In this document: piece after piece, positions 11,552 through 64,000 of the stretch | Numbering within the stretch: the first letter of the stretch is position 1 | How the letters are laid out: each line of letters starts with the position of its first letter | From: Desulfovibrio sp. | Lineage (GTDB): Bacteria; Desulfobacterota; Desulfovibrionia; Desulfovibrionales; Desulfovibrionaceae | NCBI RefSeq assembly: GCF_014803725.1 | Contig: NZ_JAAVBE010000019.1 | Coordinates: 151,455-215,454 of the forward strand | Direction of reading: 5' to 3' | Length of the DNA: 64,000 nucleotides | Notes under the pieces: model-generated | What the model was told of the DNA's origin: nothing | Database searches by the model: none | Seen by the model: only the letters and a program-made list of their open reading frames with translations | Position numbers and translations under genes: made by a program

Positions 11552-11563
11552 CAGCCCGGATGA

Positions 11564-12721
<1,158 letters not shown>

Positions 12722-39512: not shown

Positions 39513-42500
39513 TTAGCCGTTGCTCAACACGATATTCTGCGCGGCCTGCTCGCCGGCATCAGTGCCGCCGGTGCTGTCCACGGTCAGCGTGGTTTCGAGT
39601 GAGACGCCATCCCCATTTTCATAGGTAGTGGTTTTGTCGTTGCCCTCGACCTTGTGCCACTGGTCGCCCAGGATGAGCTTGTTGCCTTCCACGCTGAAGC
39701 CATACTTGGCGGCAAGGGCGTCCATGTTCTGCAGGCTCGTATCCACGCCCCTGATCATCACCTCCACGTCATTGACCATGGGCATCTGGTCGTCATGGCC
39801 CTCGCCATTCCTGTTCTGCCAGTTGCCTATCATGTCCGCCAACGTGTGCTGGGTCCCGGTGCCGTCCGAGAGCAGGAAGTCGATGCCCGTTCCACCGTCC
39901 ACGAGGTAGTCATCGGCGTCATAAACGATGAGGTCGTTGCCGCTTCCGCCGAAGAGGCTATCCTTGCCCGCGCCGCCGTCCAGGAAGTCGTTGCCCGAGC
40001 CGCCGAAGAGGAGGTCATCCCCCGCGCCGCCAATGAGCGTGTCGTCGCCGGAACCGCCGATGAGGATGTCATCGTCATTGCCGCCGTCCAGGTGGTCATT
40101 GCCGCCCGCGCCGTGGAGAAGGTCGCTGCCGGAAAGGCCGTAGAGGGTGTCGTCACCGCCCGCGCCCTTTTCGAGATCCTGCTCGGCAGCCTCGAGGTTC
40201 TTCGCAATAGTATGCAGCTCGTCAGCCGTCTTTCCCGCCAGCTCCTCAGCGTTGGCAGTGAGGTCCTTGTCCCGGCTGACTTCAAGAAGGTCGCGCAGTT
40301 GTCCCTTCGCCGCATCGGTGCCGTCCCCGTCGCCCATCATGACATCGGTGCCGTTGGTGCCGAAGAGCAGGTCATTGCCCGCGAGACCGTGTACATTGCT
40401 GTGGGTGTCCTCCGCCTTGTTCGTCTGCATGTTGGCGGCGATTTCATCGGCATGCGTCTTTACCTCGTCAATGCCGTAGCCATTGGCCGCAAGCGCGCCG
40501 ATGAAGGCGGCAGCATCGCCGAAGAGGATATTGTCCGCGGCGTCTCCCTTCGGGGTGCTTTTGCCGTTCTTGTCATAGGCCGCGTCGATGAAGACATACT
40601 TGTCGCCAACCTTATGCGGGTCAAGATTGGTCTCAAGGCGGAGATGGACGCCGTCCTTTTCATATTCAAACGTCTTGCCGCCGTCCTTTGTCGTCCAGCG
40701 GTCGTCAACGGTCATGATGTGGCTCTTGCCGTCAATGACCACGCCGTACGACGCCAGGGACGCGAGGCTCGTGATGCCCAGGTTTTCCACATGGGTGGTA
40801 TGCAGGGAAGTGATGAGCACCTCCACCCCGGCCACCATCGGCTTGTCTTTGCCGCCCTCAATCATTTCCGCAAGGGTTGGTGCGTCCTTGCCGCCCGCCA
40901 GCAGGATGTCGATACCGTCGCCGCCGTGGATGATCAGGTCGTTCTGGTCGTAAACGATGATGTCATTGCCGGAGCCGCCGAACAGCATGTCCTTGTCCGT
41001 ATAGCCGTCCACCGGCTTGCCGTTGCCGTCCAGGTAGTCGTCACCGCCGCCGCCGAAGAGGATGTCGTTGCCGACGCCGCCATAAAGCGCGTCATTACCC
41101 TGCTCGCCCTTCTCCATTGCGTTCATAAGCGCATTCAGCTCTTCGGGCGACTTATCGAGCAACGCGTCCCGAACCTGCTCAAAGGCAGCCTTGTTGGCGC
41201 CGGTGACGCCCTTGTTCTGGCCCAGGCTGTTCACGCCGTTCCCGATATTCTCCTTCCCGGTTCCGATACCTTCCTTGAAGGCCACGTCGAGACCAAGGCC
41301 ATCGAGCAGCTCCCCGAGGGGACTGTCCTCCCCGTTGTCCAGGCCGTCGCCCAGCATCAGGTCGTTGCCGCCCTTGCCGTACATGAGGTCATTGCGTTCA
41401 TGGCCGCGCAGCAGGTCATACGCATTGTCAAACAGCACGGTGTTGGAATCGGTTCCCCAGTCGGTTTCGTAATAGCCGGTTTCCACATTGTGGAAGCGCT
41501 CAAGGTCGCTCGGGTTGGACATGTCGATGTTTTTAACCAGACTCGCCGTGTCGCCGTCCGCATCCTTGACCTTGAATGTCACATTGAAGTCGGCCTTGGT
41601 GTTCTCACCCTTCTTCGCAAACTCGTAGAACTGCTTGATGGTCCAGGTGCCGTCCTGATTGAGGCTGCCTTCAAACAGGGTGACGGTCTGCCCGTGCAGA
41701 TCAAATGTCGCCGTGACGGTGGTTGGGGTAGATGTCAGCTGTGCCACATATTCCCCCGCATCAGGGCCGGTGAGGATGTTGAATTCCTTCAGCTCGGCTT
41801 GGCTCCAGTCCCAGGTGATGGCATTCTCTGTCGCTTGGCCGTCCGCCCCGAAATCAACGTCAACCTGGCCCTTGTATTCCTGCGCGGTGTGGGTGAAGCC
41901 CAGCGACTTGATGCCGAAGGCGGAGGCCGTATGGTGCACAGAATCGGGGGCAGCGGAAATGATCACCTTGGTGTAGCCGTCCGGCACGGCGATATGTATC
42001 TTGCCAGAGGCATCGAGATCCTTGGAGCTTATCTCCACCATCTTGACCAGGCTGTCATCATTGTTGTTCTTGGGCGTGAGATAGAAGCAGATGAGCGCCT
42101 TTTCGCCTGCTCCGAGACCACCGAACTCGATATTCGTACCGTAATAAATGGTGCCTTCGGTGTTTTCAAAGACCAGCGCTTCGGAGTGCTTCGCATCCGG
42201 CATGCTCAAGCCGTTTTGATCGTAATTTCCTCCCCACGTCCCGACGGTCAGGCCATTCTCCCCCATCGCCAGTATCTTGTCGGCTTTGGACGCACCCCCG
42301 TTATATGCATTATTGATATCCTTTGAGTAATCCACCGTGTACCCGTTCTCGGTAAAGGTGTATTCCACAAAGGTGGGAATGATCTGGATGCCGCCATAGG
42401 TGCCCATATAGGCGTTGGCAGTCGGGAGATAACTGGCATAATTCCCGGGGTGCTCGGGATCAAATATGGGATGATTGCCAGAGCTTCCCATAACATACTT

Positions 42501-44372
42501 GAAGTCCCAGCCCTGATCTTCGAAGTACTTCGCAGACGAGGTGAGGCTGTTTGGGGTGTTGAATTGCAGGAAGGCGACATCGTCCCTGCTGTCCACGCCG
42601 GCGAGCTCATAGGGCGCGTCTCTTATGCTCGGTCCGTCGTCCTCAATGGTGATGGACACGTTGTTGTTTGTGGCCGTGCTTCCGCCCTTGTCCGTGCCCG
42701 TCACGGCGATGCCGGTGATGCTGATGGAGTCGCTGTCCACAGCATGGCCGGCGGGGTCAGTCATGCTCGCCGTCATGGACACCGTGCCATCGGGCTTGAC
42801 CTCGCCGATGGTCACCGTCAGGGTCACGCCGTCACCATTGATGCCGACCAGCGTATCCGTGCCCTGTCCCGTCCATGTGAAGTTGTTATTGGCTGCTCCT
42901 TCAACCGTGATGGCCTGGTCGGCCGCAAAAACCACCGTCGTCACGTCCTGCGGCCCGTCGAAGAGGTCGGCGGACTTCTGCTCGCTCGCTACCTTCTCGC
43001 CCGCGGCGTCCCCATCCTTGAGCGTGAACGCGATGCCCGTGGCTTTGGGGCCTTCCGAACCGGGATCGACCGGCTTAAGCGGCGTGTTCACAAGGTCAAT
43101 GGTCAGCGTGTTGCTGGTGACATCGCCGTCCGCGTCCTTCACCTGGTAGTGGAAGACCTCGTCCTCCACGCCCTCGGGCAGCACGGCCTTCCCGTTGTCA
43201 TCTTTGAACCCATCCTTGAGCGCGTAAGTATAGCTGCCGTCCGGCTGGATGGTCAGGGTGCCGTACGTGCCCTCCACCGTGGCGCCGAGGGCATTGCCGT
43301 CGGCGTCCGTCAGCGTGAGCGAGCCGGTCATCCAGCCGTCCGCGCCGGCAGTGTCATTGGCGAGCAGGTTGCCCGTGACCTCGGTCTTCCCGCCCTCGGC
43401 GAGGGTGTTGGTGTCGGCCACGCTCGCGGCCACATCGTCCCGGATGATGATGGTGATGCTGCTGGAGGCGGCATCGCCGTCCGTGTCGCGCACGGTGAGC
43501 GGCAGGGAGTGGGCGATGTGGTCCTGCCCGGGCTGGCCGTGCTCCTGCGTGGCTTCAGTGAGGGTATAGGTGTAGGTGAGGCGCCCGGTGGCGGGGTCAT
43601 AGGCGAAGTTGTGGAAATAGCCCTCGTCGGTGTGGAACTCGGGCTTGCCAACCATCTGGCCGTTCTGCCAGATAACCTGGCCGCCGATCTCGATGCTGGC
43701 GAGCCCGTCGGGGGCGGAGACGCGCATGGCGCCGTTGACCGAGACGGAATCGCCGTCACGCAGGCCGCCCTCGCTCACCAGGCGCACGTCGCCGGGGGGC
43801 ACGATGCCCGCATTGCCGGGCTCGCCGCCGTCCGGGACGCCCGGGATGCCGGGGATGCCCGGGGTGCCGGGAGGCACGGGCGTGGGATCTTCGGGCGTGA
43901 GGGTGACGGGATTGTTGCCGCCGTCGTCATCGTGGGTGTAGCCCACGGCATTGGGGTGGTCCTCCCACTCGAAAGCGCGGGAGAAGCCCCAGTCAAGGCC
44001 GTCGAGATGCTGGATGCCGCCGGTGAGGGCGGAATCGCCCCACTCGTGGAAGCGCGCGCCGTTGGCGACGGTGCCCGTGCCGGGGCCGGCTGCCGGCATG
44101 AGGTCGGGCTCGTTCATGGCCTCGAAAAAGTCCGCCGCGGCCACTTCGGTGCCGTCGATATTGAACGAGGGCAGGTTGTCGCCGTTGTATTCCTGATAAA
44201 AGCCCTCGAGCTGGAGCCGTGAGCCGTCCTGAAAGCTGATGTTCAGGTTGTCGCCGTCGCGGGCGAGGGTGGCGTCCGAGGTGGGGAAGTCGAAGACGAA
44301 ACGGGCGTCGGGCGCGCACTGGACGGACTCTGAAGCACCGGCGGCGGGCTTGGCGAGGCGGATGTCGGCCAT
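39513..44372 (-). CDS. Large T1SS-secreted RTX adhesin (LapA/BapA-like), 1619 aa
   Basis: N-terminal retention-like domain with PAAG; VCBS/cadherin-like repeats (G.YGTLTIQPDGSYTY, DADGD); multiple GGxGxD nonapeptides; no Sec signal. Confidence 0.9.
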   Translation of the reverse strand: MADIRLAKPAAGASESVQCAPDARFVFDFPTSDATLARDGDNLNISFQDGSRLQLEGFYQEYNGDNLPSFNIDGTEVAAADFFEAMNEPDLMPAAGPGTGTVANGARFHEWGDSALTGGIQHLDGLDWGFSRAFEWEDHPNAVGYTHDDDGGNNPVTLTPEDPTPVPPGTPGIPGIPGVPDGGEPGNAGIVPPGDVRLVSEGGLRDGDSVSVNGAMRVSAPDGLASIEIGGQVIWQNGQMVGKPEFHTDEGYFHNFAYDPATGRLTYTYTLTEATQEHGQPGQDHIAHSLPLTVRDTDGDAASSSITIIIRDDVAASVADTNTLAEGGKTEVTGNLLANDTAGADGWMTGSLTLTDADGNALGATVEGTYGTLTIQPDGSYTYALKDGFKDDNGKAVLPEGVEDEVFHYQVKDADGDVTSNTLTIDLVNTPLKPVDPGSEGPKATGIAFTLKDGDAAGEKVASEQKSADLFDGPQDVTTVVFAADQAITVEGAANNNFTWTGQGTDTLVGINGDGVTLTVTIGEVKPDGTVSMTASMTDPAGHAVDSDSISITGIAVTGTDKGGSTATNNNVSITIEDDGPSIRDAPYELAGVDSRDDVAFLQFNTPNSLTSSAKYFEDQGWDFKYVMGSSGNHPIFDPEHPGNYASYLPTANAYMGTYGGIQIIPTFVEYTFTENGYTVDYSKDINNAYNGGASKADKILAMGENGLTVGTWGGNYDQNGLSMPDAKHSEALVFENTEGTIYYGTNIEFGGLGAGEKALICFYLTPKNNNDDSLVKMVEISSKDLDASGKIHIAVPDGYTKVIISAAPDSVHHTASAFGIKSLGFTHTAQEYKGQVDVDFGADGQATENAITWDWSQAELKEFNILTGPDAGEYVAQLTSTPTTVTATFDLHGQTVTLFEGSLNQDGTWTIKQFYEFAKKGENTKADFNVTFKVKDADGDTASLVKNIDMSNPSDLERFHNVETGYYETDWGTDSNTVLFDNAYDLLRGHERNDLMYGKGGNDLMLGDGLDNGEDSPLGELLDGLGLDVAFKEGIGTGKENIGNGVNSLGQNKGVTGANKAAFEQVRDALLDKSPEELNALMNAMEKGEQGNDALYGGVGNDILFGGGGDDYLDGNGKPVDGYTDKDMLFGGSGNDIIVYDQNDLIIHGGDGIDILLAGGKDAPTLAEMIEGGKDKPMVAGVEVLITSLHTTHVENLGITSLASLASYGVVIDGKSHIMTVDDRWTTKDGGKTFEYEKDGVHLRLETNLDPHKVGDKYVFIDAAYDKNGKSTPKGDAADNILFGDAAAFIGALAANGYGIDEVKTHADEIAANMQTNKAEDTHSNVHGLAGNDLLFGTNGTDVMMGDGDGTDAAKGQLRDLLEVSRDKDLTANAEELAGKTADELHTIAKNLEAAEQDLEKGAGGDDTLYGLSGSDLLHGAGGNDHLDGGNDDDILIGGSGDDTLIGGAGDDLLFGGSGNDFLDGGAGKDSLFGGSGNDLIVYDADDYLVDGGTGIDFLLSDGTGTQHTLADMIGNWQNRNGEGHDDQMPMVNDVEVMIRGVDTSLQNMDALAAKYGFSVEGNKLILGDQWHKVEGNDKTTTYENGDGVSLETTLTVDSTGGTDAGEQAAQNIVLSNG

Positions 44373-45727: not shown

Positions 45728-47599
45728 ATGACAGCCAACGCCAACCTTGAGGCCCGCCTCCACGCCGTTCTGGACCAGCTCCCGGGCGGCGTCTGCGCTC
45801 CGGGCTGGCGCCTGCTCTACGCCAATGCCGGCCTGCGCGCGCTTTTGGGCATCGGCGCGAAGCTCACGGGCGCGACGGATGCGGCAGGCAGCCCGCCGGC
45901 AGAAGCCCTCGCCACCTGGCTCGGCCAGGGCGCCCTTGAGGGCTTCGACGGCCACGGCGATGCCCGCGAGGACGCGAAACAGCGCGGGCGCCTCCTGTTC
46001 CGGCACGGGGGCGGCTCCACCTACCTTCTCCACTGGTGGGAGGCGGGCGCCCCGGACGAAGCGGGCAGCGAGGAAGGCAACGGCGAAGCGGACACCGGAG
46101 ACGGGAGCGGCGGCAGCCACGCGGCCCTGCGCTGCTTCACCGTGCAGGAGCTGCCGCCCGGCGGCCTCGAGCAGGCGGCCAGCCACTCCTTGCGCGAGCT
46201 CGACAATGTGCTGGAATCCATCCATGACGGCATCTGGGTCATCGACGGCCAGGGCGTGACCCGGCGCATCAACCGCGCCATGGAGCGCATCGCCGGCATC
46301 CGCGCCTGCGAGGTGGTGGGCCGCCACGTGAGCGAGCCTTTGCGCGAGGGCCGCTTCAAGACCTGCGTCACCCTGCGCGCGCTGGAAACGCGGCATACGG
46401 TGACGCTCTTCGACGACTATTCCAACGGCAAGCGCTGCCTCAACACGAGCACGCCCATCTTTGACGCGGACGGCAAGGTCTGGCGCGTCATCGCGGCCAT
46501 CCGCGACATCACGGAGCTTGAGAACCTCCAGACCAAGCTCTCCAACCTTGAGGTGGAGGCGCTGGCCTACCGCCTGCGCGCCCAGGGGCTGGAGGGCGAG
46601 ACGGCGAGCGGGCTGCTCGGCCAGAGCCTGCTCGTCCAGCGCGTGCGCCAGGACATCGCCAAGGCCGCGCAGGCCGAGGCCGTGACGCTCATCCTCGGCG
46701 AGACGGGCACCGGCAAGTCGCTGGCGGCGAAGCTCATCCACGACATGAGCGCCCGCGCGGACAAGCCCTTCGTGGCCGTCAACTGCGGCGCCATCCCGCC
46801 GGCGCTCATGGAATCGGAGATCTTCGGCTACGAGGGCGGCGCCTTCACGGGCGCGGCGCGCGGCGGCAAGCGCGGCATGCTGGAGCTGGCCCAGGGGGGC
46901 ACCCTGCTCCTCGACGAGATCGGCGAGCTCTCGCTGCCCATGCAGGCCAAGCTCCTGCACGTGCTGGACGGCCAGCCCATCTACCGCGTGGGCGGCACCC
47001 AGCCCATCACGGCCGACGCGCGCCTCATCGCGGCCACCAACAAGCCGCTGGACCGCATGGTGGCCGAGGGGCGCTTCCGCGAAGATCTCTTTTACCGCCT
47101 GCGCGTGCTCTGCGTGGAGATGCCCCCCTTACGCGAGCGGCGGGACGACATCCTCCTGCTCGCCTGGCACTTCCTGCGCAAGATCGGCCAGGAGACCGGC
47201 ACCACCAAGAGGCTTGACCCGCGCACCGAGCAGATCTTCCTCGCCTACGGCTGGCCGGGCAATGTGCGCGAGCTCCAGAGCGTCATCCAGTCCCTGCTCA
47301 CGCTCTGCGAGCGGCAGAACATCCTCCCCGGCGACCTGCCCTCCTACATGCGCGAGGCCGCCGAGGAACTGCCCGAGCCGGCGGCGCCCCGCGAATCCAT
47401 GACTTCCGCGGTGGAGCGCCTCGAGCGGGACATGCTCTCCTCTGCCCTCGCCGAGACGGGCAGCACCTACAAGGCCGCGCGGCGCCTTGGCATCAGCCAG
47501 TCTTCGGTGGTGCGCAAGGCGAAGAAATACGGGCTGCACACCGCCGGCGCGCCGGGCTGGACCGAACGCATCGCCGCCGCGCCCGGCAGGGAGAAATGA
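45728..47599 (+). CDS. Sigma54-dependent enhancer-binding protein (PAS-AAA+-HTH, TyrR-like)
   Basis: PAS domain, GETGTGKS Walker A, intact GAFTGA, LLLDEIGE, WPGNVREL and C-terminal HTH. Confidence 0.92.
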   Translation: MTANANLEARLHAVLDQLPGGVCAPGWRLLYANAGLRALLGIGAKLTGATDAAGSPPAEALATWLGQGALEGFDGHGDAREDAKQRGRLLFRHGGGSTYLLHWWEAGAPDEAGSEEGNGEADTGDGSGGSHAALRCFTVQELPPGGLEQAASHSLRELDNVLESIHDGIWVIDGQGVTRRINRAMERIAGIRACEVVGRHVSEPLREGRFKTCVTLRALETRHTVTLFDDYSNGKRCLNTSTPIFDADGKVWRVIAAIRDITELENLQTKLSNLEVEALAYRLRAQGLEGETASGLLGQSLLVQRVRQDIAKAAQAEAVTLILGETGTGKSLAAKLIHDMSARADKPFVAVNCGAIPPALMESEIFGYEGGAFTGAARGGKRGMLELAQGGTLLLDEIGELSLPMQAKLLHVLDGQPIYRVGGTQPITADARLIAATNKPLDRMVAEGRFREDLFYRLRVLCVEMPPLRERRDDILLLAWHFLRKIGQETGTTKRLDPRTEQIFLAYGWPGNVRELQSVIQSLLTLCERQNILPGDLPSYMREAAEELPEPAAPRESMTSAVERLERDMLSSALAETGSTYKAARRLGISQSSVVRKAKKYGLHTAGAPGWTERIAAAPGREK

Positions 47600-54144: not shown

Positions 54145-55296
54145 ATGTTCCGTTTCTTCCTCGTGCTTGCGCTCGTCCTCTTCCAGCCGCTCGCCCCGCG
54201 GGCCGAGACAGACCTGAAGCGGCAACTGGAAACTCTGACGGCAAAGATGCCCGCTACCGTCGGGGTGGCGGTCATCATCGACGGCACGGAGACTGTCACG
54301 GTCAACAATGACCAGCGCTTCCCGCTCATGAGCGTGTTCAAGTTCCATCAGGCCCTGGCGCTGGCCGACCGGATGGCGGCACAGGGCATGCCGCTGGAAA
54401 CGGAAATTTGGGTCACAAAAAGGGACTTGCCCCAAAATACCTGGAGTCCTTTGCGAGACGCACGCCCGGAGGGAAACTTCGCCATCCCTGTTGAGGAACT
54501 CCTCCGCCTCACGCTCCAAGAGTCGGACAACAATGCCTGCGACATCCTCTTCGACCGCATCTGTTCGGTGAAAGACACCGAGGCTTATATCCACGGACTC
54601 GGCATCCGTGACTGCGCCATCAGCGCCACCGAGGCCGACATGCACGCCGACCTCACACGCTGCCGCGATAACTGGACAACACCGCTCGCCATGGCGCGCC
54701 TTTTGGAGCGCTTCCTCACGGAGAACATCCTGCCGGCGGCGCAGCATGACTTCATCAAGGCCACCATGATTGGCTGCACCACTGGCGCGAACCGGCTGGC
54801 CCGTCCGCTGGCCGGGACGGGCGCCAGTCTGGGCCACAAAACCGGCACCAGCGACCGGGACCCCGACGGGCGCCTTATGGCCCTCAATGACGCGGGCTTT
54901 GTCCTTTTGCCTGACGGGCGCCACTATGTCATCGCCGTGTTCATCAAGGACTCGTGGGCTTCCGACGCCGAGACCGAGGCGATGATTGCCGAAATTTCCT
55001 CCTGCGTGTACCGGCACATCAACAGTTTGCCCCCCTGCCCACAGCGCAGCGCCGACCAGCTGGCAAGCCCTGAAATTTCAAAACTTATTTTTTCTAGAAT
55101 TATCAATACCCTGCGCGAAAAATCCCGCAGGCCTGTCCCGTGCAGCCCTCACCCCTTGCTGACAAAAAGCCTTTCGCCTGTTAGGCTTGCGATGAAAAGC
55201 ACATACCCTTGCGTTAAAAAACCTGCGAATCCGCCACCGCATCCATTTGCGGCAGGGAGGGCCTGGCATCATGGGTTTTGGGCGACAACTCTATGA
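54145..55296 (+). CDS. Class A beta-lactamase, subclass A2 (CepA/CfxA/PER-like), with an atypical C-terminal tail
   Basis: Signal peptide; SVFK (54331), SDN (54523), ExxMH (E166-equivalent) and KTG (54838). Confidence 0.88.
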   Translation: MFRFFLVLALVLFQPLAPRAETDLKRQLETLTAKMPATVGVAVIIDGTETVTVNNDQRFPLMSVFKFHQALALADRMAAQGMPLETEIWVTKRDLPQNTWSPLRDARPEGNFAIPVEELLRLTLQESDNNACDILFDRICSVKDTEAYIHGLGIRDCAISATEADMHADLTRCRDNWTTPLAMARLLERFLTENILPAAQHDFIKATMIGCTTGANRLARPLAGTGASLGHKTGTSDRDPDGRLMALNDAGFVLLPDGRHYVIAVFIKDSWASDAETEAMIAEISSCVYRHINSLPPCPQRSADQLASPEISKLIFSRIINTLREKSRRPVPCSPHPLLTKSLSPVRLAMKSTYPCVKKPANPPPHPFAAGRAWHHGFWATTL

Positions 55297-56533
55297 ATTT
55301 CTCCTTGCCGGCAGCGCGGCCTATGCCCGCTGGGATTTTGAAGTCTCCACCTCCATCCTGAAAAACCGCAAGAAGCTGCTCCTCGTTCTTGCGCTGGCCG
55401 CGCCCATCTTTCTCTGCTGCATCGCGGAGGCGTATGACCCGCATGAGATCCTTGGCGGGCACGCCGCCTATGCCCCGGCCTTCTACACGCTGCCCATCTT
55501 CCTCGCGGCCATCGGCGTGGGCGTGGCCGCCGGGCTCATCACCGGCTGCATCGGCGCCGGCGGCGGCTTCATCATCACGCCCGCGCTCATGGCCGTGGGC
55601 GTCAAGGGCATTTTGGCCGTGGGCACGGACCTCTTCCATATTTTCGCCAAGGCCATCATGGGGACGGCCATCCACAGGAAGCTCGGCAATGTCTCCATGA
55701 GCCTTGCCTTCAGCTTCCTGGCCGGCTCCATTCTGGGCACCTTCATCGGGGGGGCTCTCAACAAGGGCCTCTATGACCTCAATCCCCTGCTCTCCGACCT
55801 TTTCATCAGCTCGATCTATGCGGTTTTGCTCGGCTTCCTCGGCTTTTACGCCCTGACGGACTATTTGCGCTGCCGCCGGACGGCGCCCTCGCAGCAGGCA
55901 GAAAGCGCGGCGGAAAACACCGGCCTCACCGGCATCGCGCGGCGAATGCAGGCCATCATCCTGCCGCCCATGATCCCCTTTGACGGCCACGCCACCCCGG
56001 GCGGCAGGCGCATCTCCGCATGGATCGTCGCCGGCGGCGGCGTGTTTGTGGGTTTTCTCGCGGCCATCATGGGCGTGGGCGGCGGCTTCGTCACCTTCCC
56101 CATGTTCGTCTATGTGTTCGGTGTGTCGTCCATGACCACCGTGGGCACGGATATTTTCCAGATCATCTTCACCGCTGGCTTCGCGGCCGTGGGGCAGTAC
56201 GCCGTTTACGGCTATGTGTTTTACACGCTCGCCATCGGCATGCTCCTGGGCTCGCTTTTGGGCATCCAGGTGGGCGCGCTCACCACCTCGGTGGTCAAGG
56301 CGAACCAGATCAAGGGTTTTTACGCCGTCTCCATCATCGCGGGCTTCATCAACCGCGCCGCCACACTGCCAAAGAAGCTGGTAGAGCTGGAGTTCCTGAG
56401 CCTCCCGGGCGCCCTCGTCAACGGCATCGAGGCCGTGGGCAATGTGGTGTTCTGGGCGGTGGTGGCCTTTTTCGGCCTGTGGGTATGCAGCAAGTTCTTC
56501 CTGAACATGGGCAAACTGCGGGGGGATGCGTGA
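55271..56533 (+). CDS. TauE/SafE family sulfite exporter, long type
   Basis: ITGCIGAGGGFIITP and IMGVGGGF duplicated TauE motifs; AGGGAGG RBS. Confidence 0.88.
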   Translation: MGFGRQLYEFLLAGSAAYARWDFEVSTSILKNRKKLLLVLALAAPIFLCCIAEAYDPHEILGGHAAYAPAFYTLPIFLAAIGVGVAAGLITGCIGAGGGFIITPALMAVGVKGILAVGTDLFHIFAKAIMGTAIHRKLGNVSMSLAFSFLAGSILGTFIGGALNKGLYDLNPLLSDLFISSIYAVLLGFLGFYALTDYLRCRRTAPSQQAESAAENTGLTGIARRMQAIILPPMIPFDGHATPGGRRISAWIVAGGGVFVGFLAAIMGVGGGFVTFPMFVYVFGVSSMTTVGTDIFQIIFTAGFAAVGQYAVYGYVFYTLAIGMLLGSLLGIQVGALTTSVVKANQIKGFYAVSIIAGFINRAATLPKKLVELEFLSLPGALVNGIEAVGNVVFWAVVAFFGLWVCSKFFLNMGKLRGDA

Positions 56534-57261
56534 TGGCCGGCATTGTGAGAAACAAAAAGCCTTTCCTGAAAGGGACCGCCCTGCTCGGCAGCTTTGCCGT
56601 GCTGTTCTGGCTCATCCTGACGCCGCTTTTGCCGGGCGAACACGGGCAGCGCCTCACGGGGCTGCAGTACGCGGACAAGACTTTCAACGAACTGTCCAAG
56701 GGTTCTTCCTATTTTATACCGGCCGTGCGGGAGGATATAGTGCCGCTCATGGGCAGCGTGGTCAGCCTGCGGGTGACGCTGCAAAGGCCCGGGCTCGCGC
56801 CGCTCGCCCAAAGCCTGCTCGCGGGTGCCGGGGCATCCCCGGTGGAGGCGCAGGGCGCGACACTCGCCTTCACGGGCGATCTCGGCCGTATCCTGCTGGC
56901 GGCCACGGACGACGCGGACCTCCTTTACCGCAATGACGGACAGGCCGTGAGCGACAGGAGCGGCGGCGCGCCCGCGCTCGAAGTGGCCTCCGCGTGGTGG
57001 TATCTGCTCAAGCCCTGCATCCAGGAACTGCAAAAGCAGCAGCGCGTGGCCGACGCCAAGGCCGTGGATCAGGTGCTCACCCGCGCCATCGAGCCGGGCA
57101 ACAACTTCTACGGCATCGAGCCCGCGGACATGTCCGCGCATATCCTGCTCGTCTGCGGGCTTCTGGCCTTTTATGTGCTCTATACGCTCTGGTACGGCTT
57201 CGGCATCTACGAGATTTTTGAAGGGCTCGGCCTGGTGGCCGCGGGGCATAAAGAAAACTGA
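56533..57261 (+). CDS. Membrane protein partner of the long TauE
   Basis: TGATG coupling; N- and C-terminal TM segments around a periplasmic domain. Confidence 0.8.
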   Translation: MAGIVRNKKPFLKGTALLGSFAVLFWLILTPLLPGEHGQRLTGLQYADKTFNELSKGSSYFIPAVREDIVPLMGSVVSLRVTLQRPGLAPLAQSLLAGAGASPVEAQGATLAFTGDLGRILLAATDDADLLYRNDGQAVSDRSGGAPALEVASAWWYLLKPCIQELQKQQRVADAKAVDQVLTRAIEPGNNFYGIEPADMSAHILLVCGLLAFYVLYTLWYGFGIYEIFEGLGLVAAGHKEN

Positions 57262-57285
57262 GCGGTCCGCCGGCGCCGCGCACGT

Positions 57286-57315
57286 GAAAGGGCCGCCCCA
57301 AGGGACGGCCCTTTC
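57286..57315. terminator. Bidirectional terminator
   Basis: GAAAGGGCCG...CGGCCCTTTC between convergent genes. Confidence 0.8.
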
Positions 57316-57343
57316 TGTATATCTGTGCCGAAAACCTGAGATA

Positions 57344-57880
57344 TTACAGGCGCTCGTTATGGCTGGCGCCGCGCATGGTCTGCGAAAAACCGAAGGCAAC
57401 GGCCGTTTCGCCAGGGTTCAGGGCCTGCACGCCCGCAGCGCTGGGCACGCTGCACGAATGGGCTTCCATGTTGCACTGCGCGCCCGCGGGGGCGGCGGCC
57501 AGGGCATCCGAAAAAGCCGCCGGGGCCTGCGTGGCGTCCTCCTGCGCCGCGGTGGCCGGCGCAAGGGGCGCCGGAGCGGTCTGCGGAGCCGCGGCCCTTT
57601 GCTCGATGCGGGGCGTCATCGCGGCATGCCCGGCGGCGACCGACTGCTGCCCGAGCAGGGCGGGCGTCAGGAACAGCGCCAATACGGCAAGAGCGGCGCC
57701 GAGGGTATATCTCCGCAGCCTGCGCGACGCGTCGTTGCTCTTAAACATGGCGCCCTCCCGGCGTGCGTGCTTGCGGTCAATGGCTTCCAGAGTGAGATCG
57801 GTATTCATGGCGGGAGCGGCGAGAAAAGCCCTTCTCCCGGTATCCATCGTGGTGGCACTGTATGCAGCGTCCATGCGCAT
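57344..57880 (-). CDS. Hypothetical exported Ala/Pro-rich protein (alternative start 57748)
   Basis: AAGGAG RBS at 57880 and GGGAGG RBS at 57748; hydrophobic signal-like segment; CNMEAHSC. Confidence 0.55.
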   Translation of the reverse strand: MRMDAAYSATTMDTGRRAFLAAPAMNTDLTLEAIDRKHARREGAMFKSNDASRRLRRYTLGAALAVLALFLTPALLGQQSVAAGHAAMTPRIEQRAAAPQTAPAPLAPATAAQEDATQAPAAFSDALAAAPAGAQCNMEAHSCSVPSAAGVQALNPGETAVAFGFSQTMRGASHNERL

Positions 57881-57906
57881 GGGGTGCTCCTTTATATCAC
57901 GGCCGT

Positions 57907-58113
57907 CTACGGGCGGCCGGAAAGTGAAAGATCCGAAGGCAGAAGGCCGGTGCGACGCTGGCGGAAGCGGTTGCGGCTCACGCTGCGCGCGGACAGGGCC
58001 ACAGCCTGGCGCCGGTCACGCAGCACATAATAGAGCGACGTGAGCCCGAGAAAGCCGGCTATAAAAAAAATGCTCACCTGTATAAAAATCATACAAAACA
58101 CAAAGCTGCTCAT
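57907..58113 (-). CDS. Small single-TM hypothetical protein (68 aa)
   Basis: GGAGG RBS; one hydrophobic helix followed by an Arg-rich tail; lies downstream of a sigma54 promoter. Confidence 0.55.
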   Translation of the reverse strand: MSSFVFCMIFIQVSIFFIAGFLGLTSLYYVLRDRRQAVALSARSVSRNRFRQRRTGLLPSDLSLSGRP

Positions 58114-58249
58114 GATATTTCCTCCAACCATGCCGGTTTGTGCGGCCCGGGGCTTGCCTCTTCCCTCTTGCCCCCGGCCGGCCGGCCTGTTTCCCTGTAT
58201 AATTTTTTGCCCGGCGCGGGGAAATTTTCACCCGCGGTATACAGGATAA

Positions 58250-58266
58250 AGCATAGGCCGTGCCAA
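58250..58266 (-). promoter_or_regulatory. Sigma54 (-24/-12) promoter
   Basis: TTGGCACGGCCTATGCT: GG-N10-GC with a TGGCACG consensus half. Confidence 0.72.
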
Positions 58267-58340
58267 GAGGCCAGGGGGAGGGGCAAAAGGAAAAATCGCG
58301 CCTTGCCGGCGCCCGCACTGTCCCCGACGTGGCCCCGAAC

Positions 58341-58356
58341 TGGCATGGATAGTGCA
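58341..58356 (+). promoter_or_regulatory. Sigma54 (-24/-12) promoter
   Basis: TGGCATGGATAGTGCA: GG-N10-GC. Confidence 0.68.
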
Positions 58357-58498
58357 CATGGGTTTGCGCAAAACTCGCTCGCTTTCCGCGCCCCCATGCG
58401 GCCCTTGCCTCCGCGTGGGCGAGCGTGCGCGCCTGCGCGCAACTGGCCGCGGAAGGCCGCCAACCCCGCCGCCGGGCGGGCTCTTTGTTGGAGGGGAA

Positions 58499-59362
58499 AT
58501 GCGCTTCTCATTCCTCGGTCTTGGCAATATGGGCGCGCCGCTGGCGCGGAATATCCTGCTCGCGGGCGAAGAGCTCACCGTCTTCACGCGCCGCCCCGAA
58601 TGCGCCGCCGCCTTCGCCGCGGAGGGCGCCACAGTGGCGACGAGCGTGCAGGAACTCGCCCACTGCGACGTGCTTTGCACCTGCCTGCCCCTGCCCGAGC
58701 ATGTGCGCGAGGCCGTGCTGGGCGCGAACGGCACGGGAGAGGGCCTGTATGCGGCCATGGGCCCGGGCAGCATCCATCTCGAGTTCAGCACCATCGACCC
58801 GGCCACGGCCAACAGCCTCGCCGCGGCGGCCGGGGCCAAGGGCGTGGCCTATGTGCAGGCCACGGTGGGAAAAACGCCGCAGATGGCCATGAAGCGCGAG
58901 GAGCCGCTGTTCGTGGGCGGGAACAGGGCTGCGGTAGGCACGCTCTGGCCCCTGCTCGAAAAGATCGGCCAGCCGCATGACGTGGAAAACGTGGACGCGG
59001 CCTGTGCAGTGAAGCTTTTGAGCAACATGATCGGCATGGCGAACCTGGCCGTGCTCGCCGAGGGTTTGCGCATCGGGCAGGCCGCGGGCATGAAACCTGA
59101 CGCCCTGCTGCCCCTTTTGCAGGATACCGGCGCCCGCAGCTTCCAGATGGATGTGCGCGGCCCATGGATGGCGGCCGATGATTTCAGCCCGCGCTTCGCC
59201 GTGGACCTCGCCGCCAAGGATCTGCGTCTTGGCTGCGCCATGGCCCGGGCCTGGGGCTTTAAGCCGCGCCTCACCGAGGATGCCCTCGGCATGTTCAAAA
59301 AAGCACAGGCCGAGGGCCTGGGCGGCGAGGACGCCTGCGCCGTGTTCAAGGCTGCGAATTAA
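58499..59362 (+). CDS. NAD(P)-dependent beta-hydroxyacid dehydrogenase (3-HIBADH family; DHPS dehydrogenase/sulfolactaldehyde reductase-like)
   Basis: GLGNMG, catalytic KLLSN and FAVDLAAKDL motifs; substrate inferred from context only. Confidence 0.8.
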   Translation: MRFSFLGLGNMGAPLARNILLAGEELTVFTRRPECAAAFAAEGATVATSVQELAHCDVLCTCLPLPEHVREAVLGANGTGEGLYAAMGPGSIHLEFSTIDPATANSLAAAAGAKGVAYVQATVGKTPQMAMKREEPLFVGGNRAAVGTLWPLLEKIGQPHDVENVDAACAVKLLSNMIGMANLAVLAEGLRIGQAAGMKPDALLPLLQDTGARSFQMDVRGPWMAADDFSPRFAVDLAAKDLRLGCAMARAWGFKPRLTEDALGMFKKAQAEGLGGEDACAVFKAAN

Positions 59363-59475
59363 AAAAGAAGAAGAGACCCCTCCCCGGCATCACGCACATA
59401 ACGGCGCTTCCCGCTAGCCGCCTCATGAGGGGCTGTCCGGGGGGCGGCCGTGTTTTCACGCGCGTTGAGGCATCC

Positions 59476-60219
59476 ATGACTCTCCTGCTCTTTCTCTATT
59501 TCAACACCATCTGGTTTATTGGCGGCCTGCTCACAGGGCTGACTTCCTTCGGGGGCAATCTCTTCGCCATCCCCTTGCTCACCCTCGCCATGCCCGCGCG
59601 GGAGGCCATCCTGTTCGGCTGCCTGAGTGGCGCGGCCATCCTGCTCGGGCTCGGTTTCGTCTACCGCCGGGATATCCGCTGGCGGGAAACAGTGTGCCTC
59701 GGGCTGGCGGGCCTTCCCGGTGTGCCCCTCGGCAACGCCTTTCTCAACCACGCGGGCCCGCGCCTGCTCCTGCTGGCCGCCGGCGCGAGCCTTGTACTTT
59801 TTCTCCTCTGGCAGTTCCTTTCCGGGCGGCTCCATGTGGCACAGGCGCCCCTCGCCCGCTGGTGGAGCGCGCCCTTCGGCTTTCTTTCGGGCATCATGAT
59901 GAGCGCCGTGGGCATGGGCGGCCCGCCCCTCGTGCTCTATGCCTACCTTCGCCACTGGAGCAAGGAGAACACCATCGGCGGCGCCAATCTCGCCGCCTTC
60001 ATCACCATGCTCGGCGTCTTGCCGGCGCAGTGGGCGGCCGGGCTGTATACCCCGGAGATCCTGCGCGACGGCCTGTTGGGGGGCCTGTTCGGCATTCTCG
60101 GCATCGTGGCCAGCGTGCCCATCGTGCGCAAGGTCGATGCCCTGCTCTTCCGGCGCCTGCTTTTGCTCATGATCGCGCTCTCGGCCGTCATGCTGCTCGT
60201 GCGCGGCCTTGCCGCCTGA
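59476..60219 (+). CDS. TauE/SafE family sulfite exporter, short type
   Basis: GLTSFGGNLFAIP and VGMGGPPLVLY motifs; about 8 TM segments. Confidence 0.85.
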   Translation: MTLLLFLYFNTIWFIGGLLTGLTSFGGNLFAIPLLTLAMPAREAILFGCLSGAAILLGLGFVYRRDIRWRETVCLGLAGLPGVPLGNAFLNHAGPRLLLLAAGASLVLFLLWQFLSGRLHVAQAPLARWWSAPFGFLSGIMMSAVGMGGPPLVLYAYLRHWSKENTIGGANLAAFITMLGVLPAQWAAGLYTPEILRDGLLGGLFGILGIVASVPIVRKVDALLFRRLLLLMIALSAVMLLVRGLAA

Positions 60220-60393
60220 GGGGCCGGCCCTCCCCATCCGGCGCACTGTTGCAGAAAAACTGTTGTAAAAATGCACTACAGGAAATAACATAGGGGAATA
60301 TAAGGATATTCACAAAATTTTGTGTTTTTTTGCCATCCACCCCCTGTGGATTTGCGGCCCACTTTCGGTGAATTTTCTGCATACTCCCTGAAA

Positions 60394-60406
60394 AATCAAC
60401 AAGTTA
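60394..60406 (+). promoter_or_regulatory. IHF-binding site
   Basis: AATCAACAAGTTA is an exact WATCAANNNNTTR match just upstream of a -24/-12 promoter. Confidence 0.7.
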
Positions 60407-60412
60407 TCCTCT

Positions 60413-60428
60413 TGGCATGGCTGATGCT
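60413..60428 (+). promoter_or_regulatory. Sigma54 promoter of the glycyl radical operon
   Basis: TGGCATGGCTGATGCT: GG-N10-GC. The implied +1 near 60439 makes 60510 the likely start codon. Confidence 0.75.
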
Positions 60429-60509
60429 TAGAGGAGGCGCATGGGCGTTTTCTCACAAGCGCCCGGGATGTTCGTATTCAGAGATGATACTGCTGAGGAG
60501 AAAGCCATT

Positions 60510-62981
60510 ATGAGCCAGTGCAGCTGCATGTCGCCGCAGGAAGAACGCGTCATCAACAAGAACGTCAACCGCGAGGGCCGCGAGCGCATCTACAAGATCC
60601 TTGAGCGCAACCAGTTCACCCTCCCGCATGTGGATGTGGAGCGGGCCAAGTATTTCACCGAGTCCATGCGCGAGACCGAGGGCGAGCTGCTCACCCTGCG
60701 CTGGGCCAAGGCGCTCAAGAACGTGGCCGAGAAGATCACGGTCTGGATCACGCCCGACCAGCTGCTCGCCGGCCGCGTGGGCAAGCTCGGCCGTTACGGC
60801 ATCCTCTATCCCGAAATCGACGGCGACTTTTACCGCGAAGTGCTCGCCGACCTCGAGCACCGCGACAAGAGCCCCTTCCAGATTTCCAAGGAAGACATCA
60901 AGACGGTCATGGAAGACATCGCCCCCTACTGGGAGGGCAAGACCTACCACGAACACCTCAACCGCGTGCTCCCCGCCGACATCCGCAACGTCACCTACCA
61001 TGACGAACGCGGCCTGAAGTCCAAGTTCGTGGTCAGCGAGACCTCCTCTTACCGCTCGGCCCTCCAGTGGGTGCCGGATTACGAGAAGGTCATCACCAAG
61101 GGCATGCTCGCCATCCAGCAGGAGGCCAAGGACAAGCTCGCCACCCTCGACCTCAACAATTCGGTCGACCTGTGGGAGAAAAAGCCCTTCCTCGAAGCCA
61201 TGATCATCGTCTGCGACGCCATCATGATCTGGGCGCGCCGCCACGCCGACCTCGCCCGCAACATGGCCGCCAACGAGACCGACCCCAAGCGCAAGCAGGA
61301 ACTGCTCGAGATCGCCGAGGTCTGCGACCGCGTGCCCGCCTATCCGGCGCGCACCTTCCGCGAGGCCGTGCAGAGCCAGTGGTTCGTGCAGATGTTCTCG
61401 CGGCTGGAGCAGAAGGCCAGCGCCATCATCTCCAACGGCCGCATGGACCAGTACCTCTATCCCTTCTACAAGAAGGACATCGAGGAAGGCCGCCTCACCC
61501 GGGAGCAGGCCAAGGAGCTGCTGGAGTGCATGTGGGTGGACATGGCCCAGTTCATCGACCTCTACATCAACCCCACGGGCGTGGAATTCCAGGAAGGCTA
61601 CGCCCATTGGGAGGCCGTGACCATCGGCGGGCAGACCCGCGAAGGCGAGGACGCCACCAACGACCTCACCTACCTCTTCCTTGAGTCCAAGCGCGAGTTC
61701 CCGCTCAACTATCCCGACCTCGCCGCGCGCATCCACTCCCGTTCGCCCGAGCGCTTCCTCTATGAAGTGGCGCTGACCGTGAAGGACGGCTCCGGCTTCC
61801 CCAAGCTCATCAACGACGAGGAAGTGGTCTTCCTGAACACGGTCAAGGGCTGCCCGATGGACGAGGCGCTCGACTACGCCGTTTCCGGCTGCACCGAGAC
61901 GCGCATGCCCAACCGCGACACCTACACCTCGGGCTGCGTGTATGTGAACTTCGCCACGGCGCTCGAGATGACGCTCTATAACGGCCGCATGCTCCACTAC
62001 GGCGACGAGCTCATCGGCGTGGAGACCGGCGACCCGCTGGAATTCAAGACCTGGGAAGAGTTCTACGACGCCTACAAGACCCAGCACCTGAACCTCTTGC
62101 GCAAGGCCTTCCAGCAGCAGCATGTGGTGGACCGCCTGCGGCCCCAGCACTTCGCGGCGCCCTTCTCCTCCGTGCTGCACGACCTGTGCATGGAGAACAT
62201 GCTCGACCTGCACACCGAGAAGATCCCGGGCGGCGTGGACTACTCCTACTTCGAGTTCCTGGGCTACGGCACCGTGGTGGACTCGCTCGCGGCCATCAAG
62301 AAGCTCGTGTTCGATGACAAGAAGCTGACCCTCAAGGAAGTCATCGACGCCTGCAAGGCAGACTTCAAGGGCTACGAGCCCATCCGCGAGATGCTGCGCA
62401 ACGCCCCCTGCTACGGCAACAACGACCCCTATGCCGACAGCATCGCCAAGGATGTTGACCGCTTCACCCAGGTGGAGGCGGAAAAGAGCACCCGCGAGCG
62501 CGGCGTCCATGTGGACGTGCGCTATGTGCCCATCACCTCGCATGTGCCCTTCGGCAAGGTGGTCTCGGCCACGCCCAACGGCCGCCACGCCTGGACCGCC
62601 CTTTCCGACGGCTCCTCGGCCTCGCACGGCGCGGACAAGAACGGCCCCACCGCCGTCCTGCTCTCCAACTATCATTCCAAGAACTACGGCATGACCAACC
62701 GCGCCTCGCGCCTCCTGAACATCAAGCTCTCGCCCAAGTGCGTGGAGGGCGACGAGGGCACGGAAAAGATCATCAACCTCATCAGGACCTGGTGCGACCT
62801 CAAACTGTGGCACCTGCAGTTCAACATCGTCAACCGGCAGACCCTGCTCAACGCCCAGAAGGAGCCGGACAACTACCGCAGCCTGCTCGTGCGCATCGCC
62901 GGCTACAGCGCCTACTTCTGCGATCTCTCCCGCGATCTGCAGAACGACATCATCGACCGCACCGAGCACAGCGCCTTCTAG
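60510..62981 (+). CDS. Glycyl radical C-S lyase of the IslA/HpsG clade (probably DHPS sulfite-lyase HpsG-like)
   Basis: RIAGYS (Gly798), SGCTETR (Cys461/Glu463), RSALQ (Arg182/Gln186), EGYAHWEAV and RYVPITSH (Arg671). Confidence 0.85.
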
Positions 62982-62994
62982 TCCTCCCAACAGC

Positions 62995-63023
62995 CGGGGG
63001 GAGGTTCGCCTCCCCCCGCTTTT
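62995..63023 (+). terminator. 10-bp hairpin with UUCG loop and short U-tract between the GRE and its activase
   Basis: CGGGGGGAGG-TTCG-CCTCCCCCCG-CTTTT. Confidence 0.7.
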
Positions 63024-63090
63024 GCGCCCTGCGGATTGCCGGCCCGGCAGCTCCCGGGGCGCCCCTTCGTTCAATCTGTGGAGCCCGAGC

Positions 63091-63987
63091 ATGAACGACG
63101 CGCAAACTACCGGCATCGTCTTCAATATCCAGAAATTCAGCGTCCATGACGGCAAGGGCATCCGCACCCTGGTCTTCCTCAAGGGCTGCCCCCTGCGCTG
63201 CCGCTGGTGCAGCAACCCGGAATCGCAGCGCCACGAGCCCGAGCACGCCTTCAACCCCATGCGCTGCCTCACGGCCGAGGTGTGCGGGCGCTGCGTCAAT
63301 GCCTGCAAAAGCGGCGCGCTCACCCTGAAGAACGGGCTCATCGCCTTTGACCCGCGCGCCTGCGAGCAGTGTTTCGCCTGCGCGGACGCCTGCCCCTCGG
63401 GCTCGCAGAGCGTCTACGGCGAGCGCATGACCGTGGACGCCGTGCTCAACAAGGTGGAGGAAGACGGCGTTTTCTACAACCGCTCGGGCGGCGGCCTCAC
63501 TCTCTCCGGCGGCGAGGCCCTGGCCCAGCCCGACTTCGCCCTGGCCCTGCTGCGCGAGGCCAGGCGGCGCCGCATCAAGACAACCATCGAGACCTGCGGC
63601 TATTACCCGTATGAACGCCTCGCCGAAGCCTGCGCCTCGCTGGATGCGCTCATCTTCGACATCAAGTGTTTCGACCCCGCGCTGCACAAGAAGTTCACCG
63701 GCGTGGACAACGCGCGCATCCTCGACAATTTCCGCCGCGTCTGCGAGGACTTCCCCCTCTTGCCCATCCGGGCGCGCACCCCGGTGATCCCGGGCTTCAA
63801 CGACAATGAGGCCGAGATCCAGGCCATCCGGGAATTCGTGCCCCGCCGCCCCAATGTGGAATACGAGCTTTTGACCTATCACCGCATGGGCCAGCCCAAG
63901 TACGGCTATCTCGGCCGCATCTACGAGATGGAAGGCGCCAACCTCGTGGAGGACATCATGCGCCGCCTGCGCGACATCGCGCAGTAA
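63091..63987 (+). CDS. Glycyl radical activating enzyme (radical SAM with 2x[4Fe-4S] insertion)
   Basis: CPLRCRWC motif, ferredoxin motifs CGRCVNAC and CEQCFACADACP, and GGEAL. Confidence 0.95.
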   Translation: MNDAQTTGIVFNIQKFSVHDGKGIRTLVFLKGCPLRCRWCSNPESQRHEPEHAFNPMRCLTAEVCGRCVNACKSGALTLKNGLIAFDPRACEQCFACADACPSGSQSVYGERMTVDAVLNKVEEDGVFYNRSGGGLTLSGGEALAQPDFALALLREARRRRIKTTIETCGYYPYERLAEACASLDALIFDIKCFDPALHKKFTGVDNARILDNFRRVCEDFPLLPIRARTPVIPGFNDNEAEIQAIREFVPRRPNVEYELLTYHRMGQPKYGYLGRIYEMEGANLVEDIMRRLRDIAQ

Positions 63988-64000
63988 ACACCCTTTCCCT

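Follow-up and report, generated by a model that had tools for sequence, protein, structure and literature searches.

A 64,000-nt stretch of a Desulfovibrio sp. contig (NZ_JAAVBE010000019.1, positions 151,455 to 215,454; hereafter the window; G+C about 65%) carries near its end a region, 58250-63987, that is very probably the 5′ half of an hps locus, for respiration of 2,3-dihydroxypropanesulfonate (DHPS), from a gut Desulfovibrio. Judged by its sequence, the glycyl radical enzyme (GRE) encoded there is orthologous to the (2S)-DHPS sulfolyase HpsG of Bilophila wadsworthia, and it is followed by its activase, HpsH. The last 13,491 nt of the window are identical to a 111-kb public metagenome contig (L001), whose gene calls were converted to window coordinates, and the nearest genome records are metagenome-assembled genomes (MAGs) of uncultured gut Desulfovibrio, with HpsG identities of 99% and 96%. 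For comparison we used 80 related loci from species-representative genomes (L-numbers), with 79 full-length GREs aligned with three structures. The genes considered are:

57907-58113, minus strand: predicted membrane protein of 68 aa (gene call on L001)
58499-59362, plus strand: dehydrogenase of the 3-hydroxyisobutyrate dehydrogenase (3-HIBADH) family, 287 aa (Pfam NAD_binding_2 and NAD_binding_11)
59476-60219, plus strand: TauE/SafE-family (TSUP) permease, 247 aa (Pfam PF01925)
60510-62981, plus strand: hpsG, glycyl radical enzyme, 823 aa (match to 6LON, NCBIfam NF048011)
63091-63987, plus strand: hpsH, radical S-adenosylmethionine activase, 298 aa (NCBIfam NF048010)

When the window GRE was compared with all solved structures, its clear best match was 6LON, the DHPS-bound form of B. 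wadsworthia HpsG (2026 review), with 1601 bits; it scored 1247 bits with IseG (5YMR) and 1177 bits with IslA (7KQ3); the respective identities are 81%, 65% and 62%. It passes the NCBIfam equivalog model for HpsG (NF048011; 1514 bits, cutoff 1000) and fails that for the DHPS dehydratase HpfG (NF048009; 461 bits, cutoff 1000). A phylogeny with IslA and HpsG, which a first-pass annotation of this DNA had proposed as a check, places the enzyme in the HpsG clade and outside the IslA/IseG clade: in the neighbour-joining tree, the HpsG bipartition holding the window GRE and 6LON was recovered in 100 of 100 bootstraps, as was the IslA/IseG bipartition. The HpsG clade comprises 46 aligned sequences and spans a continuous identity range of 79-100%. 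HpsG cleaves DHPS to sulfite and hydroxyacetone, with an approximately 100-fold preference over isethionate.

The active site agrees with this assignment. The key residues of 6LON are Arg183, Gln187, Arg672, Cys462 and Glu464 (2026 review), and the sulfonate triad of the window enzyme, Arg182, Gln186 and Arg671, aligns with the first three of these. Its catalytic loop is CTETR, the same as in 6LON, with Cys461 and Glu463, and its radical site is Gly798 in RIAGYS, which corresponds to Gly799 of 6LON and fits the pattern R-[VI]-x-G-[FWY]; the catalytic and sulfonate-binding residues thus all agree with 6LON. The pocket segments RSALQ, QKASAI, xEFQ, CTE[TA]R and RYVPITSH are common to the 46 HpsG-clade sequences, with one Mailhella sequence (L040) departing in two of them, and 28 IslA/IseG-type sequences have RS[SC][IL]Q, QKTGT[ITV], GA[FI]N and RxVPFTSH instead. 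The IslA-type segments RSSIQ, QKTGT[IT], GAFN and VPFTSH all differ in the window GRE. Indeed, the five differences from IslA that the first-pass annotation had listed (RSSIQ/RSALQ, QKTGTT/QKASAI, GAFN/VEFQ, CIEIR/CTETR, VPFTSH/VPITSH) proved right against 7KQ3, and each is the HpsG state. The single deviation of these segments from 6LON is a Val for Asn at 6LON position 359, which is common to a sub-clade of 27 Desulfovibrio-type loci.

Since the pocket segments of the window GRE are those of HpsG, we consider it very unlikely that its substrate is another, perhaps new, C3 sulfonate, as had also been suggested at first. The Val of the Desulfovibrio sub-clade at position 359 would speak for such a substrate, as would the dehydrogenase and TauE genes, which the B. 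wadsworthia locus does not have; however, DHPS-bound HpsG has the same triad, catalytic residues and remaining pocket segments, the enzyme is 81% identical to HpsG in a tight and continuous clade, and the binding protein of the associated transporter is close to BwHpsK. An isethionate sulfite-lyase (IslA/IseG) for taurine or isethionate respiration is scarcely credible, for although these enzymes belong to the same C-S-cleaving GRE group as the window enzyme and share 62-65% identity, the Arg/Gln/Arg triad and Cys-x-Glu with it, and although HpsG itself is weakly active on isethionate, the window GRE lies outside their clade, is HpsG-type in all five discriminating segments, passes the HpsG equivalog and has beside it a binding protein that matches an S-DHPS binder.

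Between the HpsG and IslA clades lie further GRE clades (L045, L046 and L051; L047, L049, L050 and L054; L053), whose members are 68-73% identical to the window enzyme and are found at about position 10001-12470 in most cases. They retain the Arg/Gln/Arg triad and have other pocket segments, such as QRTGGV together with S[DA]FY, or QK[SA]SA[IV] together with NEFN.

The longest GRE open reading frame (ORF) runs from 60441 to 62981. Translation almost certainly starts at ATG 60510 and not at 60441, because this codon is where the alignments with PDB and NCBIfam entries set in and it is preceded by a GAGGAG Shine-Dalgarno sequence, and because ATG 60441 lies at the predicted transcription start. 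For the activase, whose longest ORF is 63022-63987, the start was taken as ATG 63091, which has a good Shine-Dalgarno sequence; 60441 and 63022 are unlikely to be true translation starts. With the starts of these two genes corrected, the inventory of the first-pass annotation (GRE, activase, TauE, 3-HIBADH-family dehydrogenase, three GG-N10-GC elements and an exact core site for integration host factor, IHF) was confirmed. The activase passes the NCBIfam equivalog model for HpsH (NF048010; 471 bits, cutoff 430), and it carries CX3CX2C at residues 33-40 and an additional ferredoxin-like Cys cluster region. Between the two genes, the following element was read from the sequence:

62995-63023, plus strand: perfect 10-bp GC hairpin, CGGGGGGAGG-TTCG-CCTCCCCCCG, followed by C-TTTT

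This hairpin was not reported by the terminator scan because its T-run is short. It is possibly a partial terminator or a transcript-stabilising element, and it may set the ratio of GRE to activase transcript.

Past hpsH, contig L001 carries, in order, an Amidohydro_2 gene, the DctP, DctQ and DctM genes of a TRAP (tripartite ATP-independent periplasmic) transporter, a regulator with PAS, Sigma54_activat and helix-turn-helix (HTH) domains, and genes for DUF4037, TPR and DUF4125 proteins. The DctP protein scored 505 bits with 24GG/24GH, the apo and S-DHPS-bound structures of BwHpsK, versus 143 bits with isethionate-binding DctP. By this comparison, the TRAP binding protein closely matches the S-DHPS-binding BwHpsK as a close relative, and not an isethionate binder. 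The B. wadsworthia locus is hpsGHKLM and is induced by DHPS. In a tblastn synteny search across all loci, the recurrent neighbours of HpsG were HpsH, the TRAP genes, the activator and the amidohydrolase, often joined by the DUF4037/TPR/DUF4125 trio.

The gene for the σ54 activator (PAS, AAA+ and HTH, with a GSFSGA loop) is found some 4 kb beyond the end of the window, and most HpsG loci have it in synteny; it is the most likely activator to serve the σ54 promoters of the window. Another candidate, encoded within the window at 45728-47599 (GAFTGA), was rejected as their regulator, as it is 36% identical to the downstream protein and has no synteny with HpsG loci. This second σ54 activator (plus strand; PAS, AAA+ and HTH) has PrdR as its best NCBIfam match, below the cutoff, and is followed by genes for two MarC proteins, a GGDEF protein, a xanthine/uracil-family permease, an SNF transporter and a D-2-hydroxyacid dehydrogenase.

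The amidohydrolase gene (L001:14028-14867) begins about 540 nt past the window end. Amidohydro_2 genes adjoin GREs of both the HpsG and the IslA type, with 53-94% identity, and the sole solved relative is 3IRS (BB4693), an uncharacterised structural-genomics entry. The 550-nt gap before it holds two TTGTGC-W6-GC blocks of the kind present upstream of hpsG, and the GG-N10-GC element AGGCATGAATCCTGCT at some 85 nt from the start codon, giving a σ54-like promoter with a pair of upstream activating sequences (UAS) at L001 13603-13618, 13681-13696 and 13929-13944. The DUF4037-TPR-DUF4125 trio (L001:19406-21729) follows the activator, and it is found in many HpsG loci as well.

The noncoding sequence of the region holds the following elements:

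58195-58212: AT-rich block CTGTATAATTTTTTGCCC, candidate UAS for the divergent promoters, kept in L001, L004 and L055
58265-58250, minus strand: σ54-type promoter TGGCACGGCCTATGCT, one mismatch to TGGCAC-N5-TTGCW, directed towards the 68-aa gene
58341-58356, plus strand: σ54-type promoter TGGCATGGATAGTGCA, about 143 nt before the dehydrogenase start
60245-60281: AT-rich block 1, ACTGTTGCAGAAAAACTGTTGTAAAAATGCACTACAG, counterpart in the alignment of the TTGTTGCAAAAAAACA block that other HpsG loci conserve
60318-60336: AT-rich block 2, TTTTGTGTTTTTTTGCCAT, which aligns with the conserved TTGTTGTTTTTTTGCAACA block
60394-60406, plus strand: exact IHF core AATCAACAAGTTA, ending 7 nt before the -24 element, at about -40 from the predicted start
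60413-60428, plus strand: σ54-type promoter of hpsGH, TGGCATGGCTGATGCT, predicted start at about 60439 and 5′ untranslated region of about 70 nt

The three GG-N10-GC sites deviate from TGGCAC-N5-TTGCW by one or two mismatches, with exact spacing. In essentially all HpsG-clade loci with sufficient upstream sequence (about 45), B. wadsworthia included, the best GG-N10-GC element reads TGGCAY-N5-[AC]TGCW and is found 78-134 nt (mostly 80-105 nt) before hpsG, and the spacers vary. Alignment of 23 hpsG upstream regions revealed just four conserved blocks: the Shine-Dalgarno sequence, the -24/-12 element and two AT-rich blocks that follow the pattern TTGTTGC-A7-CAACA. At the divergent pair, 58265-58250 and 58341-58356, the -24/-12 elements are kept in L004 and L055, the two closest loci, in a spacer that otherwise diverges; the block CTGTATAATTTTTTG is kept as well, and the dehydrogenase promoter of both loci reads TGGCATGGATGGTGCA, at an equal distance from the gene. 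The three elements are more than chance matches because they are conserved in orthologous loci while flanks and spacers vary. We conclude from this conservation that the three predicted σ54-type promoters, which the first-pass annotation had already pointed out, are real conserved elements kept in position across orthologous loci. The proposal from the same source that the region is σ54-controlled and serves DHPS rather than isethionate is backed by the HpsG clade, by the BwHpsK-like binding protein and by a promoter kept across HpsG loci.

Blocks 1 and 2 upstream of hpsG form a direct repeat and an inverted repeat, and the arm GTTTTTTTGC of block 2 is 90% complementary to 60251-60260. The block at 58195-58212 resembles the TTGTG-W7-GC blocks upstream of hpsG and lies in a poorly conserved spacer. 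These patterns suggest that the activator would bind at the AT-rich blocks. The 68-aa gene, which is divergent from the dehydrogenase gene, is the probable target of the minus-strand promoter 58265-58250. Two further ORFs, one of 95 aa lying over the promoter (58110-58397) and one of 178 aa (57344-57880), show no conservation and are possibly spurious. An Rfam scan of 57000-64000 gave a best E-value of 0.49, well below every gathering score, and generic terminator and σ70 scans added nothing. Three RNA-type runs yielded assembled contigs of related strains that cover hpsG, hpsH and parts of the dehydrogenase and TauE genes; public runs with near-identical sequence are mainly gut metagenomes. 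In a related strain (gut metagenome run X1), an 11-nt insertion, TGGCCCCAAAC, is present at window position 58329, just before the dehydrogenase promoter.

The IHF core AATCAACAAGTTA is the single exact match to WATCAANNNNTTR in 64 kb, where 0.41 would be expected and 34 of 100 shuffles contained at least one. The best match to WATCAR-N4-TTR lies at a fixed offset (-19/-20) in 24 of 40 HpsG loci, and an IHF-like score of at least 8/9 was reached in 20 of the 40, versus 24% of control windows from the same AT-rich regions. The σ54 promoter of D. vulgaris orp2 has a functional IHF site at -43, and the position of the core here is comparable. An IHF site at 60394-60406 is thus plausible by sequence and position. 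The exact site claimed at first is indeed exact and unique in the window; its conservation is partial, which makes it a weaker observation than the promoters.

Upstream of hpsG, the dehydrogenase scored below the cutoffs of the equivalog models for GarR (135 bits, cutoff 397) and YihU (NF012005; 117 bits, cutoff 348). Its closest solved relative is 9K2J (307 bits, about 55% identity; YihU scored 94 bits), deposited as '3-hydroxyisobutyrate dehydrogenase' and 79-80% identical to the dehydrogenases of L047 and L050. In L050, a GRE of an intermediate clade is followed by a short-chain dehydrogenase/reductase (SDR), an SsuA-type ATP-binding cassette (ABC) transporter and the DhpA-like dehydrogenase, a neighbourhood that recalls that of DhpA in Desulfovibrio sp. 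DF1. Homologues of the window dehydrogenase (45-66% identity) occur in many HpsG loci, either within the operon, where a gap of 54-212 nt separates them from a preceding hpsH, hpsM, activator or DUF4125 gene, or alone behind a σ54-like element. Because they recur in HpsG loci in this manner, a functional link of the dehydrogenase to DHPS metabolism is well supported by its genomic setting.

The COG2084 protein DhpA of Desulfovibrio sp. DF1, which shares 27% identity with YihU, uses NAD+ to oxidise DHPS to sulfolactaldehyde. The window dehydrogenase resembles DhpA and YihU in belonging to the same fold family, in its catalytic Lys with the neighbouring Asn and in its place in a DHPS locus: the position of YihU Lys171 is invariably Lys, and the following Asn is kept in the dehydrogenase family. 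It differs from YihU in having Ser/Gly at Asn174/Ser178, an NADP-type rather than NAD-type motif and a score below the equivalog cutoff. The family has invariant loops of its own, GKTP and DTGARSFQMDVRGP, and Lys/Arg-rich loops, GKTP and GARSFQMDVRGP. HpsG-linked members carry [T/S/N]-Arg (window residues 29-33, FTRRP) where YihU, 9K2J and the L047 and L050 enzymes have the NAD-specifying Asp. In other β-hydroxyacid dehydrogenases, [T/S/N]-Arg in place of Asp goes with NADP(H), which by analogy suggests that the HpsG-linked dehydrogenases use NADP(H). We regard the window enzyme as a predicted DHPS/sulfolactaldehyde oxidoreductase that could act in either direction. The first-pass idea that it epimerises DHPS found no support: DhpA and YihU act at C3, interconverting DHPS and sulfolactaldehyde, and epimerisation is unlikely because it needs chemistry at C2, as carried out by the racemising HpsO/HpsP, which belong to other families.

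As to the direction, it is possible, if doubtful, that the dehydrogenase opens an oxidative branch of the DhpA type, in which DHPS would be converted to sulfolactaldehyde and then, via SlaB and SuyAB, to pyruvate and sulfite, so that DHPS also served as electron donor. The activity of the COG2084 enzyme DhpA in strain DF1 favours this, as does the fact that the window dehydrogenase is far nearer to the 9K2J group than to YihU or GarR; in L047 and L050, members of this group have a sulfonate ABC transporter as neighbour. However, neither SlaB nor SuyAB was recognised among the genes checked in the window and the extended contig, the [T/S/N]-Arg motif, pointing to NADP(H) and a reductive role, argues mildly against an oxidative branch, and the likeness of the window enzyme to DhpA was judged from the description of that enzyme.

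The HpsG-linked, NADP-type DhpA-like sub-family is found in, or σ54-co-regulated with, hps operons of many Desulfovibrionaceae, and it is paired with TauE at the window locus. It might represent an undescribed step of anaerobic DHPS respiration, for instance an NADPH-dependent funnel from sulfolactaldehyde to DHPS that would let HpsG drain other C3 sulfonates, with the amidohydrolase and the DUF4037-TPR-DUF4125 trio as further parts of the pathway; we hold this to be unlikely.

Less probable again is that the dehydrogenase reduces hydroxyacetone, the HpsG product, to 1,2-propanediol as a detoxification or an electron sink. Co-regulation or co-transcription of the dehydrogenase with hpsGH in many loci would suit such a role, as would the NADP-type motif of a reductase, and B. 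wadsworthia, whose described hpsGHKLM locus lists no such gene, excretes hydroxyacetone unused. On the other hand, the substrates of the family are 3-hydroxy acids and semialdehydes that carry an anionic anchor, and the Lys/Arg-rich loops suggest an anionic substrate; reductant spent on hydroxyacetone would, moreover, presumably compete with sulfite respiration.

The TauE protein matches PF01925 with 82.3 bits (cutoff 32.6) and is found in this position just in L004 and L055. The 113-nt gap between the dehydrogenase and TauE genes contains no σ54 motif, and the two genes are probably co-transcribed; the related strain of run X1 is without 96 nt of this gap (window 59364-59461). The label 'sulfite exporter' of PF01925 does not fix the substrate of TauE. 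The 68-aa protein, whose translation has a hydrophobic N-terminal half, gave no Pfam match and is conserved (72-80%) just in L004 and L055.

Several observations weigh against our reading of the locus. The NCBIfam product name for the HpsG model is '(2S)-3-sulfopropanediol dehydratase', which conflicts with the sulfolyase chemistry of the literature; we treated the label as a naming matter and followed the literature. Position 359 is Val here and Asn in characterised HpsG. The transporter and the σ54 activator lie outside the window and are known from the identical contig L001. Matches to TGGCAC-N5-TTGCW with up to two mismatches number 25 in the window against 37.6 expected, and since this is no enrichment over chance, the case for σ54 must rest on position and conservation. 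The metatranscriptome contigs give no start or strand and may include DNA, and one of them spans the promoter. B. wadsworthia is without a good IHF match, and the IHF core is weakly conserved. For the dehydrogenase, the YihU sulfonate contacts Asn174/Ser178 are replaced by Ser/Gly in 22 of 22 family members examined, and a literature search found no paper on the function of 9K2J.

In the mechanism that we propose, HpsH with S-adenosylmethionine would place a glycyl radical on Gly798 of HpsG, which by homology would hold the sulfonate group of (2S)-2,3-dihydroxypropanesulfonate through Arg182, Gln186 and Arg671 and, through Cys461 and Glu463, break the C-S bond, with sulfite and hydroxyacetone as products. 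Following established physiology, the sulfite would then be reduced to H2S by dissimilatory sulfite reductase. The HpsKLM TRAP importer and the PAS-AAA+-HTH σ54 activator would be supplied by the genes past hpsH on the identical contig. Judged by the conserved motifs, the activator, probably sensing DHPS, would bind AT-rich sites located some 100-190 nt upstream and, perhaps with the help of IHF, open the σ54 promoters of hpsGH, of the dehydrogenase-TauE pair, of the 68-aa gene and of the amidohydrolase-hpsKLM genes. The weakest parts of this scheme are those assigned to the dehydrogenase, which may interconvert DHPS and 3-sulfolactaldehyde with NADP(H), and to TauE, which may carry sulfite or sulfonate across the membrane.

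The locus shares with that of B. wadsworthia an orthologous GRE, its activase, an HpsKLM-type TRAP transporter and a σ54 -24/-12 element at a like distance. It differs in the extra dehydrogenase, TauE and 68-aa genes upstream, with σ54 promoters of their own, and in the amidohydrolase gene, which is downstream and co-directional here and upstream and opposite in Bilophila. With the IseG/IslA loci (5YMR, 7KQ3) it has in common the enzyme group and the type of mechanism, and also a σ54 activator with G[AS]FSGA, an amidohydrolase-family gene, a TRAP transporter and a GRE with activase. Those enzymes differ in forming a separate clade, in their RSSIQ/QKTGT[IT]/GAFN/VPFTSH pockets, in an isethionate-type binding protein and in a C2 instead of a C3 substrate. 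We take the D. vulgaris operon DVU2822-2825 to be the IseG locus. For this 'PFL' operon, σ54 promoters, activator sites and the amidohydrolase gene have been predicted, with DVU2827 (GAFSGA) and its orthologues as regulator and a regulon of amidohydrolase, TRAP system, 'PFL' and activase (Kazakov et al. 2015). The design of a σ54 promoter with its activator is thus not new; it is typical of sulfonate-GRE loci in Desulfovibrionales.

The HpsGH system found here is an ordinary fresh copy of the described oxygen-sensitive pair for plant-derived DHPS, whose enzyme the curated models already recognise, and hpsGH has been listed in Desulfovibrio and Mailhella by MAG surveys. The locus leaves the understanding of the core chemistry unchanged. 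It adds one more gut Desulfovibrio predicted to turn diet-derived sulfoquinovose/DHPS into H2S via HpsGH, so that Bilophila would not be the sole relevant producer, as these surveys had already indicated. The sharply conserved σ54 promoter and UAS architecture can be used for regulon prediction, and as a by-product we obtained a list of conserved, unexplained accessory genes of sulfonate-GRE loci, comprising the DhpA-like NADP-type dehydrogenase, the amidohydrolase and DUF4037-TPR-DUF4125.

Elsewhere in the window, an 823-aa ORF (29568-32039, plus strand) was considered as a second GRE and rejected; it encodes a PRK05849-type protein in a glycosyltransferase-rich polysaccharide cluster. The minus strand encodes, at 39513-44372, a protein of 1619 aa in which GGxGxD (RTX-type) repeats are numerous, and the public MAG contig breaks inside its gene, at about 43052. 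On the plus strand, a class A beta-lactamase-family gene (54145-55296; PF13354) is followed at 55271-57261 by genes for a 420-aa TauE-family protein and then a 242-aa protein without family. The same trio is also present in L004, further away.

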